64,000 nucleotides of DNA from Candidatus Thorarchaeota archaeon (GTDB lineage: Archaea; Asgardarchaeota; Thorarchaeia; Thorarchaeales; Thorarchaeaceae): positions 31,913 through 95,912 of the forward strand of contig JBHLQH010000011.1 of NCBI GenBank assembly GCA_048884965.1, read 5' to 3'. The translations under genes and the position numbers were made by a program. Below the pieces are notes generated by a model. That model had not been told where the DNA came from, searched no databases, and saw only the letters and a list, made by a program, of their open reading frames with translations. This document shows positions 31,538 through 64,000 of this stretch, piece by piece (positions within the stretch are counted from its first letter, which is position 1; every line of letters begins with the position of its first letter).

Positions 31538-32086
31538 TCAGGCTTCATCAATCTCTTCAAATTCCTCAGGAGTTACTGTATCAAAACTAGCTGCCTTTAT
31601 CCTATTCTCCAAAAGACCAACCAATCCAACAGAGGCAACCATTACTCCAAGTGTTAGTAACATATATAGTAAATCCGCAAGAAGAAAGACAATCGCCAAA
31701 CCCACGCCAGAAAGGAATCCAGTAAATGTTCGTACCAGATTCCTTGTCTTTCTAGGGGATAATCGCTGCGTCATCCAATCTGATACGGTTGCAAAGCCAA
31801 GAGCTAGAGCGATCATGAACCATAGCCATCCTGGCTCTAATTGTATGCCTAGTATGAGAATTGCTATGATGCCGATGCCAAGTCCACCGTATATTCCACT
31901 GCATCTACTGCAAAAATACAAAGAGCGTCCGAAGAATGAAACTCGAAGACAGTGAGAGTACATCGAAGGAGGATGATGTGATATCATCGTATGAAGTACT
32001 TCTTTCATTTCGTCTGTCTTGCTCCAAGAGTATGGTTCCATCTCTAACATGTCGTCTTTGTTCATAGGTTCGGAGTCTGCTGCCAT
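31538..32086 (-). CDS. DUF2085-family membrane protein
   Basis: H...CSRCSGIYGG, DW.TQ, RTFTGFLSG. Confidence 0.8.
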   Translation of the reverse strand: MAADSEPMNKDDMLEMEPYSWSKTDEMKEVLHTMISHHPPSMYSHCLRVSFFGRSLYFCSRCSGIYGGLGIGIIAILILGIQLEPGWLWFMIALALGFATVSDWMTQRLSPRKTRNLVRTFTGFLSGVGLAIVFLLADLLYMLLTLGVMVASVGLVGLLENRIKAASFDTVTPEEFEEIDEA

Positions 32087-58696: not shown

Positions 58697-59926
58697 ATGA
58701 GCAGCAAATGGGTTAGCAATGAAGGCAGGAATATTCAGGCAATATATCTTGCTTTTGCCTTACAGAGTTTGGGACAGGCAATTGCATGGCAATTTGGAAC
58801 CTACTTTCTTCAAGAGGAATTGCTAGTCGAGAGCTATGTTCTTCTCACCATTATCTGGTCAGTTCCTTACTTCATCACAATGGCTTCAGTCAGCTCATGG
58901 GGGTCTTTCTCTGACCGTCGAGGTCGTCGTAAGCCCTTCATGCTCATTGGATTCATGGGATATTCTTTCACATTCCTCATGTTCTCCTTCGTTCAGAGTA
59001 GTATACAATGGTTCATCGTATCTGCGATTGGAGCAGTTTTCTCATCCGCTGCAATTCCTTCTGGTCAAGCCCTTGCGACAACAGCAACTATGAAGAAAGG
59101 AGAACGACTAGGATTTCTACTAGTGGCACAATCATCAGGCTGGTTCGTAGGTGCATTCAGTAGTGGTATTCTGTATGATATCATAGGCATGTTTGAACTC
59201 TACCGAATTGCTGCCATTTCATGTATCTCCGCCACATTGATTTGCTACTTCTTTGTAAGGGATTATGAATTCGACCCAGATAAGATTGCAGTGCGTCCAT
59301 CAGTAAGAGTTCTACTTAGAAGACCTGGAATGAAGAGGCTATCCCTCGCCGCTGCACTTAGCGCACTTGGTATCAATTCGATTGTTTCTATGATGGCCAT
59401 AATGATCGTCAATGAGCTGGGTGGACTCGCAGTTTATGTAGGTCTCGCGAATGCTGGTGCTACATTCTTGGCAGTTCTCTTTACTGGCTTTATTGGACGA
59501 GTTATTGATAAACGTGGGCCTGGACGTGTTCTTGTACTAGCTTACCTCTCTTACATCATCTTTGCCATTGGATTTGGATTGGCTCGAGACCCTGTTACCG
59601 CAGCATTGCTTTATGCATTGCCTATCTACCCATTATCGAACACGGCAGCATATGCGTTTGCAGCGCTCTTATCTCGTGATGAGGAGCGAGGTGGCGCAAT
59701 GGGATTAGTAAATGGTGCTCAAAATGCAGGAACTGCGGTGGGTCCTGTCATTGGCGGCATCTTTGCAGAATACATCTTCTTTGCTGTTCAACCGATATCG
59801 TGGATTAATATGACCTTCAACATCATAGCATGTTCTCTAGCTGTATCATTGATTCCATTGGCTCGTGCTCTTCAGAATAGGAGATTGGATGATGAGTCAA
59901 AGCCATCAGCATCGAACTATGACTAG
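58697..59926 (+). CDS. MFS transporter
   Basis: About 12 TM; motif A WGSFSDRRGRRK and GRVIDKRGPG. Confidence 0.9.
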   Translation: MSSKWVSNEGRNIQAIYLAFALQSLGQAIAWQFGTYFLQEELLVESYVLLTIIWSVPYFITMASVSSWGSFSDRRGRRKPFMLIGFMGYSFTFLMFSFVQSSIQWFIVSAIGAVFSSAAIPSGQALATTATMKKGERLGFLLVAQSSGWFVGAFSSGILYDIIGMFELYRIAAISCISATLICYFFVRDYEFDPDKIAVRPSVRVLLRRPGMKRLSLAAALSALGINSIVSMMAIMIVNELGGLAVYVGLANAGATFLAVLFTGFIGRVIDKRGPGRVLVLAYLSYIIFAIGFGLARDPVTAALLYALPIYPLSNTAAYAFAALLSRDEERGGAMGLVNGAQNAGTAVGPVIGGIFAEYIFFAVQPISWINMTFNIIACSLAVSLIPLARALQNRRLDDESKPSASNYD

Positions 59927-60318
59927 ATGACTATGGTGCGAAGCACAGCTTCACATGAGGGACAAAGTGCAGTGCTCTCATTGAGCCACTTCAGCTTACA
60001 TAGAATCACTCTGTTTCCACAATTCTGGCAATACTCTGGGAGGATATATGCGGAATGCATCTTTTCTATGATGTCCTGCTCATCCTGTTCTATTCTGTAT
60101 GATCGCATCATTGCTTCGTTCAGAACACTGCGTCTTTCATTCGCCTGACTATTTGCTGCAGAGATACAAAAGATTCCAAAGAGGACGAAAAGTGATAAAC
60201 CCAATGTAAAGGGAGCCAACATCAAACAGATGCAAATTGCAGCCCCTAGTGTTTTGTCATTTACCCTCTCCTTATCTTCATCTGACAACTCCCTGCACCA
60301 AGTGTATATTCTCTTCAA
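59923..60318 (-). CDS. Small TM + C-terminal zinc-ribbon protein (paralogue A)
   Basis: Hydrophobic hairpin, then PEYCQNCG...W...LCPSCE. Confidence 0.7.
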   Translation of the reverse strand: MKRIYTWCRELSDEDKERVNDKTLGAAICICLMLAPFTLGLSLFVLFGIFCISAANSQANERRSVLNEAMMRSYRIEQDEQDIIEKMHSAYILPEYCQNCGNRVILCKLKWLNESTALCPSCEAVLRTIVI

Positions 60319-60352: not shown

Positions 60353-60715
60353 CTAATTAGCTTGGATAATCGATTCGCAGCTGGGACATATCCCAGTGGT
60401 CGCATCTATCCATCTGATCGAGTTCATCTCAATTCTCTTTCCACAAGTTGGACAAAAGGTAGGAATTGAATATGCATCAGAGCTCTCATCAATGGGCTGT
60501 ATTTCTTCGATTATTATCGCGTCTGGCTGACTTATTTCATTTTGACTTGCAGCTGTTACATCTCTTCCACATAAAACGCAGATAAATGCGAATCCTAATA
60601 CGATTGCCAATGGGGGGAAGATAAAGATGAAGAAGATTATGCATAGAGCGATTATTGTGAACAGTCTTTCATTCTCTTGATTTGGCGAGATTACTTTCTC
60701 ATCCACTTTTCTCAC
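60353..60715 (-). CDS. Small TM + C-terminal zinc-ribbon protein (paralogue B)
   Basis: Hydrophobic hairpin, then PTFCPTCG...W...ICPSCE. Confidence 0.7.
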   Translation of the reverse strand: MRKVDEKVISPNQENERLFTIIALCIIFFIFIFPPLAIVLGFAFICVLCGRDVTAASQNEISQPDAIIIEEIQPIDESSDAYSIPTFCPTCGKRIEMNSIRWIDATTGICPSCESIIQAN

Positions 60716-61902
60716 TCTTCTAATTGGATTTCTTTCCCACTTACAAAGACCTTCTCTACCTTGCTATAGAAATCAAATGGATGTCCGGTCCAAATGACAA
60801 TATCTGCATCCTTTCCTGGTTCTAAGGAACCAACTCTATCGACAATTCCGAGGATCTCTGCAGGATTAATAGTCACGCATTTCAATGCGTCATCTCTGCT
60901 CATTCCTTCCTTTATGACATTCATTGGTAGCAATGGAAAGTAATTCATTGGAGTTAGCGAATCCGTTTGAAGTGCTACTTTTACCCCTGCATTATTCAAT
61001 GCTATCGCAGTCTTGAAACCACGCTCCCTTGTTTCTGGTTTACTCACCCAATATATCGTTGGACCTACTACTGCAGGTACATTCGCCTTTGCGATGAATT
61101 CTGCTATCTTATGCCCTTCAGTACAATGAATTAATACTAGGCGAAGATTGAATTCCTGAGCTATCCGAATTGCAGTAGCAATATCGTCAGCTCGATGAGC
61201 ATGAGCATGAAGTGGAATCTCCCTCTTCAATACTTTAGCGATCATCTCCATCCCTAAATCACGCTTTGGCGGATTTGGCTCTGCCTCTCCTTTCTCTTTC
61301 GCTTGTCTGGTCTTTATTCCAAAGGCTTTCCATTCCTCAAGGTAGTTATGTCCATCAGTGAAGGTCTTTCGTAGCAGTGAGGCAACTCCCATTCGCGTGG
61401 ATGGAGTACGTTTCTCATTTCCATGGACTCTTTTAGGATTCTCTCCAAATGCTATCTTGAGACCTGAAGGTGATAGAACTATCATATCATCAACTACCCC
61501 CGAACCAATTGGCTTCACAACAAATGCTTGTCCTCCAATCACGTTCCCTGAACCTGGTCCTGTATTGATACAGGTCACACCACCCATTACAACTTCCTTC
61601 AAAGATGGCTCGTTGGGATTGAAGGAATCAATACCTCGTAGTTCAGGAGTGATGGGCGTTGTCATCTCATTCCCATCAGCGCCAGCCCATCCTATTGAGC
61701 CATCGAAGAGACCTTGATGTGTATGTGCATCAATAAAACCAGGAAGTACATATTTTCCTGCAGCATCTATGATCTCTGTATTCTGAGGGATTTTTGCATC
61801 TTTGCCAATTGCATGTATCTTTGTTTCATCGAAGATAACTGTGCCATTCTCGATAGTCCCATTTACTGGACAAAGAATGGTTGCATTCTTGATAGCCTTC
61901 AC
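60712..61902 (-). CDS. Metal-dependent amidohydrolase (imidazolonepropionase-like superfamily)
   Basis: PGFIDAHTH, KIAFGENPK, PSTRMG, HAHRADDI, HCTEG, GSLEPGKDAD. Confidence 0.9.
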   Translation of the reverse strand: MKAIKNATILCPVNGTIENGTVIFDETKIHAIGKDAKIPQNTEIIDAAGKYVLPGFIDAHTHQGLFDGSIGWAGADGNEMTTPITPELRGIDSFNPNEPSLKEVVMGGVTCINTGPGSGNVIGGQAFVVKPIGSGVVDDMIVLSPSGLKIAFGENPKRVHGNEKRTPSTRMGVASLLRKTFTDGHNYLEEWKAFGIKTRQAKEKGEAEPNPPKRDLGMEMIAKVLKREIPLHAHAHRADDIATAIRIAQEFNLRLVLIHCTEGHKIAEFIAKANVPAVVGPTIYWVSKPETRERGFKTAIALNNAGVKVALQTDSLTPMNYFPLLPMNVIKEGMSRDDALKCVTINPAEILGIVDRVGSLEPGKDADIVIWTGHPFDFYSKVEKVFVSGKEIQLEE

Positions 61903-61987
61903 TTTCTTCTCCTCTTGCAGGAGTCAAGTCAAAAAACGAGAAAAACCTTCTGTATCACATTCGCATAATTCTTCACGCCCTTCTTGA

Positions 61988-63067
61988 TTGGAAAGGTTCA
62001 AGTCATCGCATGATTTGCTTACATGGTTGAGGGAAATGAGGAACCGAAGAGCTGGTCCTGGGTGTGCGGTATGGGAAACCACACTTAGATGTAATCTACA
62101 ATGTATTCACTGTGGATCTGCGGCAGGTACAGCACGACCTGATGAATTGTCAACCGAAGAATCTCTTGACCTATGCAAGCAGTTGAAAGGAATTGATTGC
62201 GGCGGCATTGCAATGATGGGCGGAGAGCCTCTGGTTCGTTCTGATTGGCTAACAATTGCAAAAGAAATCAAAAGACTTGGGATGTCCCTCTCTCTCATCA
62301 CAAATGGCTACAGAATTCCTGAAAGTACATTTGAAAGTATAGAAGAAATCAAACCTGAGCTAGTGACTGTTAGCTTGGATGGTGCCTCTCCAAAAACACA
62401 TGATTTGATTAGAGGTGTCAACGGATCCTTCAGTCATGCAGTTTCCTCACTGGAACGATTCACGGAAATGGGTTTACCAACTGGAGCGATAACTACAGTT
62501 CACAAGTTGAACTTATCTGATCTCAAAGGTATTCGTCAGATTCTCATGGGAAAAGGCATAGCTTGGCAAGTTCAGATAGCTACTCCTTTCGGTCGTCTTT
62601 CTCGCGACAAGGTACTCTCCAAGGAGGAGTATTATTCTGTTGCAATGTTTGTTGCATCATCTCAAAATGAGTTTACACATGAGCAGTTAATGGTCGCAGG
62701 TGCTCATGATATGGGATATTTCTCAGAATTTCTGCCCTCCGTACAACTGGCACCATGGTCTGGCTGTCAAGCAGGAATATCCACCTTGGGGATTCAAAGT
62801 GATGGAGGCATCCGAGGTTGCCTATCGCTACCTGAATCATTCAATGAAGGGAATATTAGAGATCGCCACTTGAAGGACATTTGGTATGATGATTTGTTTT
62901 GTTCCTATTCCCGTCAGGTGGGAGAAGAAGATATCAGGGGCAATTGTCGAAAATGCAATCATCGAACCATATGCAAAGGAGGGTGCTCTGCAGTATCATT
63001 GTCTCTCTATGGGGAATTGCATCAAGATCCTTATTGCTTGAGACTAATCGAACGGGAGCTTCTGTGA
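61988..63067 (+). CDS. Radical SAM/SPASM enzyme, PlpX/splicease-like peptide or protein maturase
   Basis: VWETTLRCNLQCIHCGSAAG, GGEP, AWQVQ, SPASM GCQAG...GCLSLP...CRKC.....CKGGC...PYC. Confidence 0.9.
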   Translation: MERFKSSHDLLTWLREMRNRRAGPGCAVWETTLRCNLQCIHCGSAAGTARPDELSTEESLDLCKQLKGIDCGGIAMMGGEPLVRSDWLTIAKEIKRLGMSLSLITNGYRIPESTFESIEEIKPELVTVSLDGASPKTHDLIRGVNGSFSHAVSSLERFTEMGLPTGAITTVHKLNLSDLKGIRQILMGKGIAWQVQIATPFGRLSRDKVLSKEEYYSVAMFVASSQNEFTHEQLMVAGAHDMGYFSEFLPSVQLAPWSGCQAGISTLGIQSDGGIRGCLSLPESFNEGNIRDRHLKDIWYDDLFCSYSRQVGEEDIRGNCRKCNHRTICKGGCSAVSLSLYGELHQDPYCLRLIERELL

Positions 63068-63121
63068 ATATCCCATTCCATAATGCAAAGATTATTCTCC
63101 AAATAATGCATATGTTCTATT

Positions 63122-63466
63122 ATGTCGTGGTTTGGAGATTACTCCTTCAGGGGACTAGAGTTTGCTCGAAATCGATTTGGCGAGCGTGCGTACAGATTCA
63201 TTCTTCGGATGGCTAGGGCAAAAACACGTTCAAAATCGGAAAGGACCAAGCTTGTAGAGATTGGAAAATTAGTCGGTCTCAATGCCGCAGAAACTACAGC
63301 CGCGGCAGCTGCGTCCAAAGCGGGATTCACATTTCCGCTATGGCTAAAGATAGTCTTAACATGTATTGCCATAGTTGGAACATTGTATATTGCTAGACAG
63401 GTAATGTATATCCCTGGCACACTCTATGCGAGTATTAAGCCAAATGACTTTCTAATCAATTCCTAG
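63122..63466 (+). CDS. Small single-TM protein, candidate radical SAM substrate 1
   Basis: Basic helical N-domain, TM, tail YIPGTLYASIKPNDF; paralogous to the next gene. Confidence 0.75.
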   Translation: MSWFGDYSFRGLEFARNRFGERAYRFILRMARAKTRSKSERTKLVEIGKLVGLNAAETTAAAAASKAGFTFPLWLKIVLTCIAIVGTLYIARQVMYIPGTLYASIKPNDFLINS

Positions 63467-63495
63467 GAATCAATCCTTATTTGGATTAATTCCTA
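63464..63495. repeat. Imperfect 13-bp inverted repeat between the two paralogues
   Basis: TAGGAATCAATCC-TTATTT-GGATTAATTCCTA (12 of 13 complementary). Confidence 0.6.
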
Positions 63496-63513
63496 TAATG
63501 CTTGGTGATACGA

Positions 63514-63906
63514 ATGAAACCGTTTGATGTGGTAGGCACTGCGCAGAATAGAATTAGGGCGATGAGGAGCAAGCGACTTGGTAGTTACCTTGAGCCAGCT
63601 TTAAGATCAGCAAAGGGCCGCAATATTGAGAATGAGCGGCTTTTACAGATAGGATCGCTCGTTGGTTTGAGTGAGGGTGAGATTAACAGTGCAACTGAAC
63701 ATTATCGTGGTGCATTCAGTCGATTCTGCTCGCGTATGCTTCTCGTTCTCGTTCTCGGTTTCTTTACACTCATCTTGCTAAGCTTTCTAGCGGCTGATTC
63801 GGGTTGGGTGTTATGGGATCTATTGCCGGAAGAACCGATAACCACTTACACTCCTGGTACTAGATATGGAAGTATACATCCCTCTGATTTCAGGTCAGGA
63901 AAATGA
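63514..63906 (+). CDS. Small single-TM protein, candidate radical SAM substrate 2
   Basis: Basic helical N-domain, TM, tail YTPGTRYGSIHPSDF; start could be 63502 or 63505. Confidence 0.75.
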   Translation: MKPFDVVGTAQNRIRAMRSKRLGSYLEPALRSAKGRNIENERLLQIGSLVGLSEGEINSATEHYRGAFSRFCSRMLLVLVLGFFTLILLSFLAADSGWVLWDLLPEEPITTYTPGTRYGSIHPSDFRSGK

Positions 63907-64000
63907 AAATCAACATTGGCTGTGGATCCGTTTACAAGAAGGGGTTCATAAATGTAGATGCATTTGATAGCTCAGTTGCAGATAAAATCATGAATGCGTA

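Follow-up and report, generated by a model that had tools for sequence, protein, structure and literature searches.

A gene for a radical S-adenosylmethionine (SAM) enzyme that is followed directly by two open reading frames (ORFs) for small, related membrane proteins raises the question of whether the enzyme modifies its neighbors, and at which site and by which chemistry. Such a locus lies at the end of the 64,000-nucleotide stretch analyzed here (the window), positions 31,913 to 95,912 of contig JBHLQH010000011.1 from Candidatus Thorarchaeota archaeon (assembly GCA_048884965.1). An initial annotation of the window had described a radical SAM/SPASM gene with two small paralogous ORFs downstream of it on the same strand, which share a leader motif, one transmembrane (TM) helix and a near-identical tail. 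All of these features were found on the + strand as described, with the tails at exactly the positions given. A third component, a conserved methyltransferase gene, had been overlooked. Enzyme, methyltransferase and small proteins form one cassette, as is directly observed in gene content, co-occurrence, family placement and pattern of conservation. We consider it probable that this cassette is a three-component post-translational modification system, in which a radical reaction on an invariant tyrosine, with tyramine excision as the leading candidate, would yield a displayed tail. The features of the locus are as follows.

62036..63067, + strand: putative radical SAM/SPASM maturase, 343 amino acids (aa), assigned by Pfam and NCBIfam matches, a 46-sequence alignment, a tree and signature motifs.
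63122..63466, + strand: small protein A (ORF A), "L-Y-A" type, 114 aa, with a basic N-terminal domain, a leader helix, one TM segment and the Tyr tail.
63251..63292, + strand: leader motif of protein A, L44-E57, LVEIGKLVGLNAAE, which aligns with the near-invariant G...GL...E block.
63338..63394, + strand: hydrophobic (TM) segment of protein A, residues 73-91, from a Kyte-Doolittle scan.
63407..63451, + strand: conserved tail of protein A, Y96-F110, YIPGTLYASIKPNDF, with the invariant Tyr Y102 (63425-63427) and the invariant Asp D109.
63502..63906, + strand: small protein B (ORF B), "R-Y-G" type, 134 aa from a TTG or 130 aa from the ATG at 63514.
63628..63705, + strand: predicted leader helix of protein B, residues 43-68, at the interface of the complex model, with the conserved residues G51, G55 and L56.
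63736..63792, + strand: hydrophobic (TM) segment of protein B, residues 79-97, from a Kyte-Doolittle scan.
63847..63891, + strand: conserved tail of protein B, Y116-F130, YTPGTRYGSIHPSDF, with the invariant Tyr Y122 (63865-63867) and the invariant Asp D129.
63904..64000, + strand: the initial 32 codons for a class I SAM methyltransferase, the remainder of which lies on contig C4 (L003:15368-14094, minus strand).

Linkage and distribution of the cassette

One set of 301 genomes from the phylum was searched three times, with a profile of the small proteins, for orthologs of the enzyme (E<=1e-60) and for the methyltransferase. Matches were obtained in 52, 68 and 70 genomes, respectively. The enzyme was present in 50 of the 52 genomes with small proteins, and 106 of the 121 small-protein matches were located 23-3080 bp from an enzyme gene on the same contig, with most of the others on short contigs. 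In the two genomes that appeared to contain small proteins and no enzyme, the methyltransferase adjoined the small proteins. The 18 genomes with the enzyme only belong to other Asgard families, where the neighbors of the enzyme are polytopic membrane proteins. An independent occurrence of the small proteins, which the initial annotation had named as a refuting outcome, was thus not observed.

Among 79 loci from named genomes, a profile-positive small protein was present in 62 and the methyltransferase in 55, and all three components were found within 3.5 kb in 48. The archaeal range of the enzyme family in these genomes covers Thorarchaeota, a Hermod-labelled metagenome-assembled genome (MAG), Promethearchaeota, Asgardarchaeum, Thermoplasmatota and Methanobacteriota, and the bacterial range covers Elusimicrobia, Nitrospira and Syntrophus-, Smithellaceae- and Geobacteraceae-type genomes. 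When the neighboring genes at 18 loci were clustered, the enzyme, the methyltransferase and the small proteins were the only conserved families. No conserved protease, exporter, RRE (RiPP recognition element, RiPP being a ribosomally made, post-translationally modified peptide) or PlpY-like/PqqD-like partner was found around the enzyme at these loci, in agreement with the missing PlpY/RRE partner and peptidase noted before, and no heme-pathway genes were located near the enzyme.

The methyltransferase's N-terminal part matches Pfam Methyltransf_11/23 and is followed by a C-terminal helical/TPR domain; an ortholog in a Thermoplasmatales MAG (L025:6130-7428) matches TPR repeats at its C-terminal end. 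Comparison with solved structures yielded generic class I matches only (3mgg, sterol C-methyltransferase, phosphoethanolamine N-methyltransferase) and was uninformative on the substrate. The methyltransferase-TPR protein may be a second tailoring or tail-binding component, which would act on or hold the same tail as the radical SAM enzyme.

The methyltransferase gene runs off the end of the window, which is also the end of contig C11, 94 nucleotides (nt) past ORF B. The final 77 nt of C11 (63924-64000) are identical to the end of contig C4 (G000:C4:179291-179367, reverse), and the frame stays open across this overlap to give an intact methyltransferase of 431 aa. In relatives, the order enzyme, small protein, methyltransferase is intact on single contigs. 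A public contig extends 497 nt past the window end, and two alternative 113-nt unitigs with depths of 11.5 and 6.6 are found there. As these short unitigs meet at this point, a strain-level assembly bubble is the probable cause of the contig break. The sequencing runs that were located comprised four DNA contig sets of a single sediment study and no RNA run. The genes of the cassette are closely spaced: ORF A starts 54 nt 3' of the enzyme gene, and the start codon of the methyltransferase at 63904 and the stop codon of ORF B overlap in the sequence ATGA. The enzyme ORF is open from a TTG at 61988, and the public gene call (P0001) and the homolog alignments begin at the ATG at 62036. The names of the homologs assign the organism to Thorarchaeota. 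By eye, no obvious TATA box was seen in the 133-nt divergent intergenic region (61903-62035).

One related locus may represent an extended pathway. In the Thermoplasmatales MAG CSMAG_1140 (L025:1551-2963 and L025:5043-6113), three soluble precursors occur together with two tandem paralogous radical SAM/SPASM enzymes of the cassette family, and a PaaK/F390-synthetase-like adenylating enzyme is encoded upstream.

The enzyme, the small proteins and a model of their complex

The enzyme matches Radical_SAM (PF04055) with 85.8 bits (cut-off 29.5) and SPASM (PF13186) with 30.1 bits (cut-off 21.5). In 46 homologs, the CxxxCxxC triad C19/C23/C26 and the seven cysteines of the SPASM domain (C244, C262, C304, C307, C313, C317 and C334) were invariant. 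The top NCBIfam matches were TIGR04103 with 218.5 bits (cut-off 725), spanning profile positions 7-343 of 412, and TIGR03913 with 192.9 bits (cut-off 591.75). The next family scored 144 bits, and no triceptide- or sactipeptide-type family was among the top matches. Families of heme biosynthesis scored below their cut-offs, with 140 bits for AhbD (TIGR04545, cut-off 500) and 129 bits for NirJ.

A maximum likelihood tree of 34 sequences was calculated with IQ-TREE. As references it contained members of TIGR04103 and TIGR03913 named by the Prokaryotic Genome Annotation Pipeline from Nostoc, Azospirillum and Burkholderia plasmids, together with outgroups. No bona fide AhbD above the cut-off was found in 21 relatives, and Ahb-like sequences with 303-325 bits took its place. 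The cassette enzymes formed their own clade (support 96/99), as did the named TIGR04103/TIGR03913 proteins (100/99). Both clades, together with an Agathobacter protein, were united in a group of 25 rows with a support of 100/99 and a stem of 1.13. The Ahb-like/TIGR04053/TIGR04347 sequences formed a separate clade (99/95), and MftC and PqqE also stood apart. A clustering of the enzyme with Ahb/NirJ, which the initial annotation had named as refuting its reading, was therefore not seen.

The motifs HCGS, after the cluster cysteines, and WQxQ, both named in the initial annotation as splicease features, were common to this superclade only. Other motifs differ within it (MGGEP versus IGGEA, TNG versus TGG/TGA), and the cassette enzymes lack the 70-170-aa C-terminal extension of the named proteins. 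Because of the scores under the cut-offs, the separate clade and the missing extension, the family has to be regarded as a sister, not a member, of TIGR04103/TIGR03913. The proposed kinship with PlpX/PcpX and the GDL-associated enzymes was thus correct with regard to the nearest curated families and has to be revised with regard to membership. In the tree, its position as sister to the named splicease-type families is well supported. The Agathobacter protein, encoded on an A. rectalis plasmid (NZ_CP143948.1; L030, 2983-4137), is a radical SAM protein of a human-gut Lachnospiraceae that keeps WQLQ. It has no annotated precursor, is followed by a major facilitator superfamily transporter, and represents an unplaced third branch of the superclade.

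ORF A and ORF B are paralogous (BLASTP E=6e-9, 28% identity). In both products, a basic N-terminal region precedes a single hydrophobic segment and a short tail. They share the tail Y-x-P-G-T-X-Y-[GA]-S-I-x-P-x-D-F and the leader motif G...GL...E. Neither matched a Pfam or NCBIfam family even at lenient thresholds, DUF1843 and DUF1842 included. A loosely Nif11-like leader, as suggested earlier, was not borne out, since hhalign against two Nostoc Nif11 precursors gave a probability of 0.4% (E=0.14) and no family match was obtained. Twenty relatives were aligned, drawn from Thorarchaeota, a second Asgard family, Elusimicrobia, Thermoplasmatales and one more Thermoplasmatales MAG as five lineages. 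Across them, Y122 and D129 (ORF B numbering) were invariant, and G51, G55, L56 and G119 were at least 90% conserved. Judged by the alignment, the shared motifs are not due to chance. In a six-frame scan of the whole 4.09-Mb genome, the strict tail was confined to ORF A and ORF B. Orthologs of the A type (L-Y-A) were found in genomes G001, G006, G024 and G009, and those of the B type (R-Y-G) in G001, G006 and G011; some Thorarchaeota genera have further paralog types with D-Y-A or W-Y-A. Since the A and B types are orthologous within Thorarchaeota, the duplication must be old, with both copies retained.

A search of 1.84 billion representative proteins with the small-protein profile yielded 163 clusters at E<=1e-3. 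Among the 146 listed hits of up to 200 aa, 115 have one TM segment, 28 none and three have two. The relatives without a TM segment are soluble peptides of 52-70 aa that terminate exactly at the motif D-F. In some relatives, 2-6 tandem units of 15 aa are present (Y-K-A-G-T-x-Y-G-T-[VI]-S-P-K-[DE]-[LIF]; representative proteins P0175, P0227, P0229, P0234, P0242, P0244 and P0263). Repeated cores of this kind typify ribosomal peptide precursors with multiple cores, and by their sequence these relatives would be such precursors with several modified sites per chain. Arrays of small-protein paralogs contain up to 6 members. Co-location with the enzyme, a conserved leader and core, and multi-copy or multi-core forms, all of them observed here, are traits of a maturase/precursor pair of the RiPP type. 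Four long proteins (1186-1655 aa) that matched the leader part in repeats gave no informative Pfam family and were discarded as low-complexity.

The core of the family is Y-x-x-G-T-X-Y-[GSA]-[TS]-[IV]-x-x-x-D-F, with the Tyr at -6 kept in 116 and the Gly at -3 in 120 of 128 sequences. Position -1, directly preceding the invariant Tyr, belongs to the most variable of the core; with 2.9 bits, it is occupied by R (39), L (35), F (12), M (8), Y (8) or D (6), among others. Such a pattern would be expected if this residue determines product specificity. At position +1, G occurs in 66 cases, S in 35, A in 17, Y in 9, N in 3 and D in 1. Position +2 is nearly always Ser/Thr and position +3 Ile/Val, and all single-TM and soluble forms have the Asp at +7. 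The splicease motif XYG had been proposed as the modification site, with R-Y-G in ORF B and L-Y-A at the same position of ORF A. Both sites are present, and XYG is not a defining feature of the family because Gly follows the Tyr in only about half of its members. In 99 of the 115 single-TM relatives, K/R residues are commoner before the TM segment than after it (mean 2.6 versus 0.6).

A second architecture was found in other Asgard families, where polytopic membrane proteins of 143-171 aa, in arrays of up to six, adjoin the enzyme and the methyltransferase (for instance L053:1877-5041 in genome G165, L052:7409-8387 and L048:4337-4840). Their leader is of the same kind (E-x-K-L-x-E-[VI]-G), and at the C-terminus they carry x-Y-G-[VI]-[YF] without D-F. 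Because these variants lose the Asp and keep the Tyr motif, the Asp appears not to be needed universally. One Tyr is retained in every form of the family, be it soluble, multi-core, single-TM or polytopic. Yet another arrangement is seen in the precursor of an Elusimicrobia GWB2 MAG (L021:7113-7457), which has its leader at the extreme N-terminus, then a hydrophobic stretch ending in the lipobox-like sequence L-S-A-C; a long linker rich in Ala and Pro connects this stretch to the Tyr tail. Between the methyltransferase gene and that of this precursor lies a gene for an RDD-family membrane protein.

Co-folding of enzyme and substrate, as proposed with the initial annotation, was carried out with alignments of 46 rows for the enzyme and 20 rows for ORF B. 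The median interaction prediction score from aligned errors (ipSAE) was 0.79, compared with 0.01 for the best of 3 controls. Of 80 solved complexes in the calibration of the tool, 58 attained this mark, as did 2 of the 110 mismatched pairs; these counts are only rough here because custom alignments were used. The contacts in three runs agreed to at least 77%, with a partner pLDDT (predicted local distance difference test) of at least 68. In the model, the leader residues 43-68 of ORF B are placed on enzyme helices 197-234. The segment just past Y122 (residues 123-131) is in contact with the barrel at residues 59, 86-88, 108-111, 148-152 and 174-178, and the contacts include the conserved GGEP, NG and WQ segments of the enzyme. 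A binding mode with the leader on the enzyme and the tail in the barrel is thereby supported at the level of a model. It resembles the binary spliceases, which have no Y protein and in which an alpha-helix of the leader binds and activates the enzyme (Richter et al., PMC11414181). No close relative of the enzyme with a solved structure was found.

Candidate chemistry and its alternatives

On this basis we propose that the cytoplasmic radical SAM/SPASM enzyme would recognize the N-terminal amphipathic leader helix (G...GL...E) of both small proteins and thread the C-terminal tail into its barrel, where a radical reaction would take place on the invariant Tyr (Y102 in A, Y122 in B). The first candidate for this reaction is tyramine excision, with alpha-keto-beta-leucine as the expected product in A and alpha-keto-beta-arginine in B. 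It is ranked first because of the kinship with the splicease-type sister clade. The tail would be modified before membrane insertion and then displayed at the surface, still tethered by its own leader and TM segment. The leader would be cytoplasmic and the tail of about 20-35 aa outside because of the K/R excess before the TM segment (positive-inside rule), and with a tethered display and an uncleaved leader, neither a leader peptidase nor an exporter would be needed, in keeping with their absence. In known spliceotides, the ketoamide confers inhibition of serine and cysteine proteases (PMC11626197), and tails that differ at the P1-like residue would suit a role as protease inhibitors, which is speculative.

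The steps of this proposal are not equally firm. That the cassette pairs a maturase with its substrates is very likely, and the invariant Tyr is likely to be the target. The predicted topology and surface display are about as likely as not. Tyramine excision, by analogy with the sister clade, is put forward tentatively as the single best candidate among the reactions considered.

Several points weigh against the proposal. Peptide-bound SPASM structures exist (SuiB, CteB), and the complex model may for this reason lean on a general memory of the SPASM binding mode. The enzyme is about 33% identical to the named splicease-family proteins and lacks their C-terminal extension, and SPASM enzymes at this level of identity often differ in chemistry. 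The characterized splice sites in the cited splicease papers are all XYG, and Gly follows the Tyr in only half of the present family, with Ala in ORF A; natural Y-A sites do occur within the named clade, in the Aureibacter precursors. The strictly conserved methyltransferase and the invariant Asp at +7 have no role in the known splicing reaction and hint at a different or additional chemistry. Finally, the order of modification and insertion had to be assumed because a single TM segment puts leader and tail on opposite sides of the membrane.

The alternative that survives best keeps the cassette and its substrates and replaces tyramine excision by another reaction on or around the Tyr, for instance a crosslink from the Tyr to a side chain (a three-residue cyclophane at Y-x-[ST/V], or a bond with the invariant Asp), an epimerization or a reaction coupled to methylation by the partner methyltransferase. 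We regard it as possible, if rather unlikely. The separate clade, the unconserved Gly and the constrained positions +2, +3 and +7 speak for it, as does a conserved methyltransferase that is not part of characterized spliceotide pathways. However, the nearest characterized relatives are spliceases, and no triceptide/sactipeptide-type family is among the top profile matches. Furthermore, the core is conserved around a hypervariable position just ahead of the Tyr, which would be expected if the X of XYG becomes the new beta-residue, and the polytopic variants retain x-Y-G-[VI]-[YF] without the Asp. A combined version is somewhat more doubtful still. In it, enzyme and methyltransferase would perform a Tyr-centered non-splicing reaction, the tail would stay tethered at the archaeal surface by the uncleaved leader and TM segment, and the paralogs varying before the Tyr (Leu, Arg, Asp, Trp and others) would form a specificity panel, for example against different proteases.

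It is very improbable that the small proteins are not substrates and instead serve as membrane adaptors or regulators, tethering the enzyme pair for work on a lipid, a cofactor or another small molecule. Such a role would fit the membrane anchor of most members, the lack of a conserved protease or exporter and the resemblance of the leader to a helix-turn-helix (HTH), for which the TyrR-type HTH match was weak and non-significant. It is contradicted by the natural soluble forms, some with tandem cores, by the position of the sole invariant residues in an unstructured C-terminal tail, by the placement of this tail in the barrel of the model and by the peptide maturases as closest families of the enzyme. 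An enzyme of the heme/siroheme pathway (AhbC/D, NirJ) or of other cofactor metabolism next to unrelated small ORFs was already disfavored and has a negligible probability, since its weak secondary scores with AhbD and NirJ stand against the separate Ahb-like clade, the strict linkage to the small proteins and the lack of heme-pathway genes nearby.

If the modification cassette proposed above is correct, it would represent a ribosomally made, radical-SAM-edited protein family native to Asgard and other archaea, with membrane proteins and not exported peptides as substrates. Both the enzyme clade and the substrate family would be new for splicease-type or sister chemistry, with a conserved methyltransferase step in addition, and the compact 343-aa enzyme, the short leader helix and the 15-aa core would be of potential use in protein engineering. 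Because soluble precursors occur naturally at related Thermoplasmatales loci, the hypothesis could be put to a direct test in E. coli.

Flanking genes and comparison with known systems

Two genes next to the cassette were considered as members and rejected, as they are not conserved at the other loci of the neighbor clustering. One encodes a GNAT acetyltransferase, which in this genome follows the methyltransferase on the same strand (L003:13598-14032, minus strand). The other encodes an amidohydrolase upstream on the opposite strand (60712-61902, minus strand). The stop of the amidohydrolase gene overlaps the start of a small-protein gene (60353-60715, minus strand), which is followed by another (59923-60318, minus strand). 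The products are paralogous proteins of 120 and 131 aa, encoded head-to-tail directly downstream of the amidohydrolase, each with a single hydrophobic segment and, at the C-terminus, a CxxC...CxxC zinc ribbon that gives weak Pfam matches to DZR/zinc-ribbon families. The window thus contains a second pair of small membrane paralogs adjoining an enzyme.

No paper on the cassette family was found in the literature covered, which did not include the splicease survey of Scott et al. 2022 (Chem). This survey may list the clade because it covered bacterial and archaeal genomes (as stated in PMC11626197).

The binary spliceotide systems of Rheinheimera (RhaX/RhaA, RcsX, RasX; PMC11414181, PMC11626197) share with the cassette an enzyme gene adjoining its precursors without an RRE or Y protein, a leader alpha-helix that is predicted or shown to bind the enzyme, and a Tyr located C-terminally within a motif of the x-Y-G type, which is the modified site in the binary systems and the predicted one here. 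The residue before the Tyr is variable in both (Met, Leu and Asp in the binary systems; Arg, Leu, Phe, Met and others here). In contrast to the binary systems, the cassette enzyme of 343 aa belongs to a separate clade with about 33% identity and has no C-terminal extension. Its precursors are of another family, mostly single-pass or polytopic membrane proteins, and are not accompanied by cleavage or export genes. The optional Gly after the Tyr, the invariant Asp at +7, the conserved methyltransferase-TPR protein, the mainly archaeal hosts and a chemistry that is so far predicted are further differences.

The type I systems PlpX/PlpY/PlpA and PcpXYA (TIGR04103, nif11-class peptide radical SAM maturase 3; IPR026482) provide the best hidden Markov model (HMM) match of the cassette enzyme with 218.5 bits, and HCGS, WQxQ and a full SPASM domain are common to both. 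Unlike these systems, the cassette stays far below the cut-off of 725 bits and has neither a PlpY-like protein nor a Nif11/NHLP leader (hhalign 0.4%).

The GDL-motif systems of TIGR03913 (DUF1843/DUF1842 precursors; Azospirillum sp. B510, Burkholderia plasmids and an Aureibacter tunicatorum plasmid) give the second-best HMM match (192.9 bits) and fall into the same superclade; unlike their enzymes, that of the cassette scores below the cut-off of 591.75 bits. As in the cassette, several small paralogous precursors adjoin the enzyme, and the sites in the Aureibacter precursors (L-Y-A-A-G-I, M-Y-A-A-S-I and P-Y-G-A-G-I) comprise Y-A as well as Y-G. The Aureibacter cluster also encodes a class I methyltransferase, but of a different type (DOT1/Methyltransf_4-like). 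In the TIGR03913 precursors the Tyr is N-terminal and followed by the helical DUF1843 domain, whereas in the cassette it is located C-terminally, after the leader and the TM segment.

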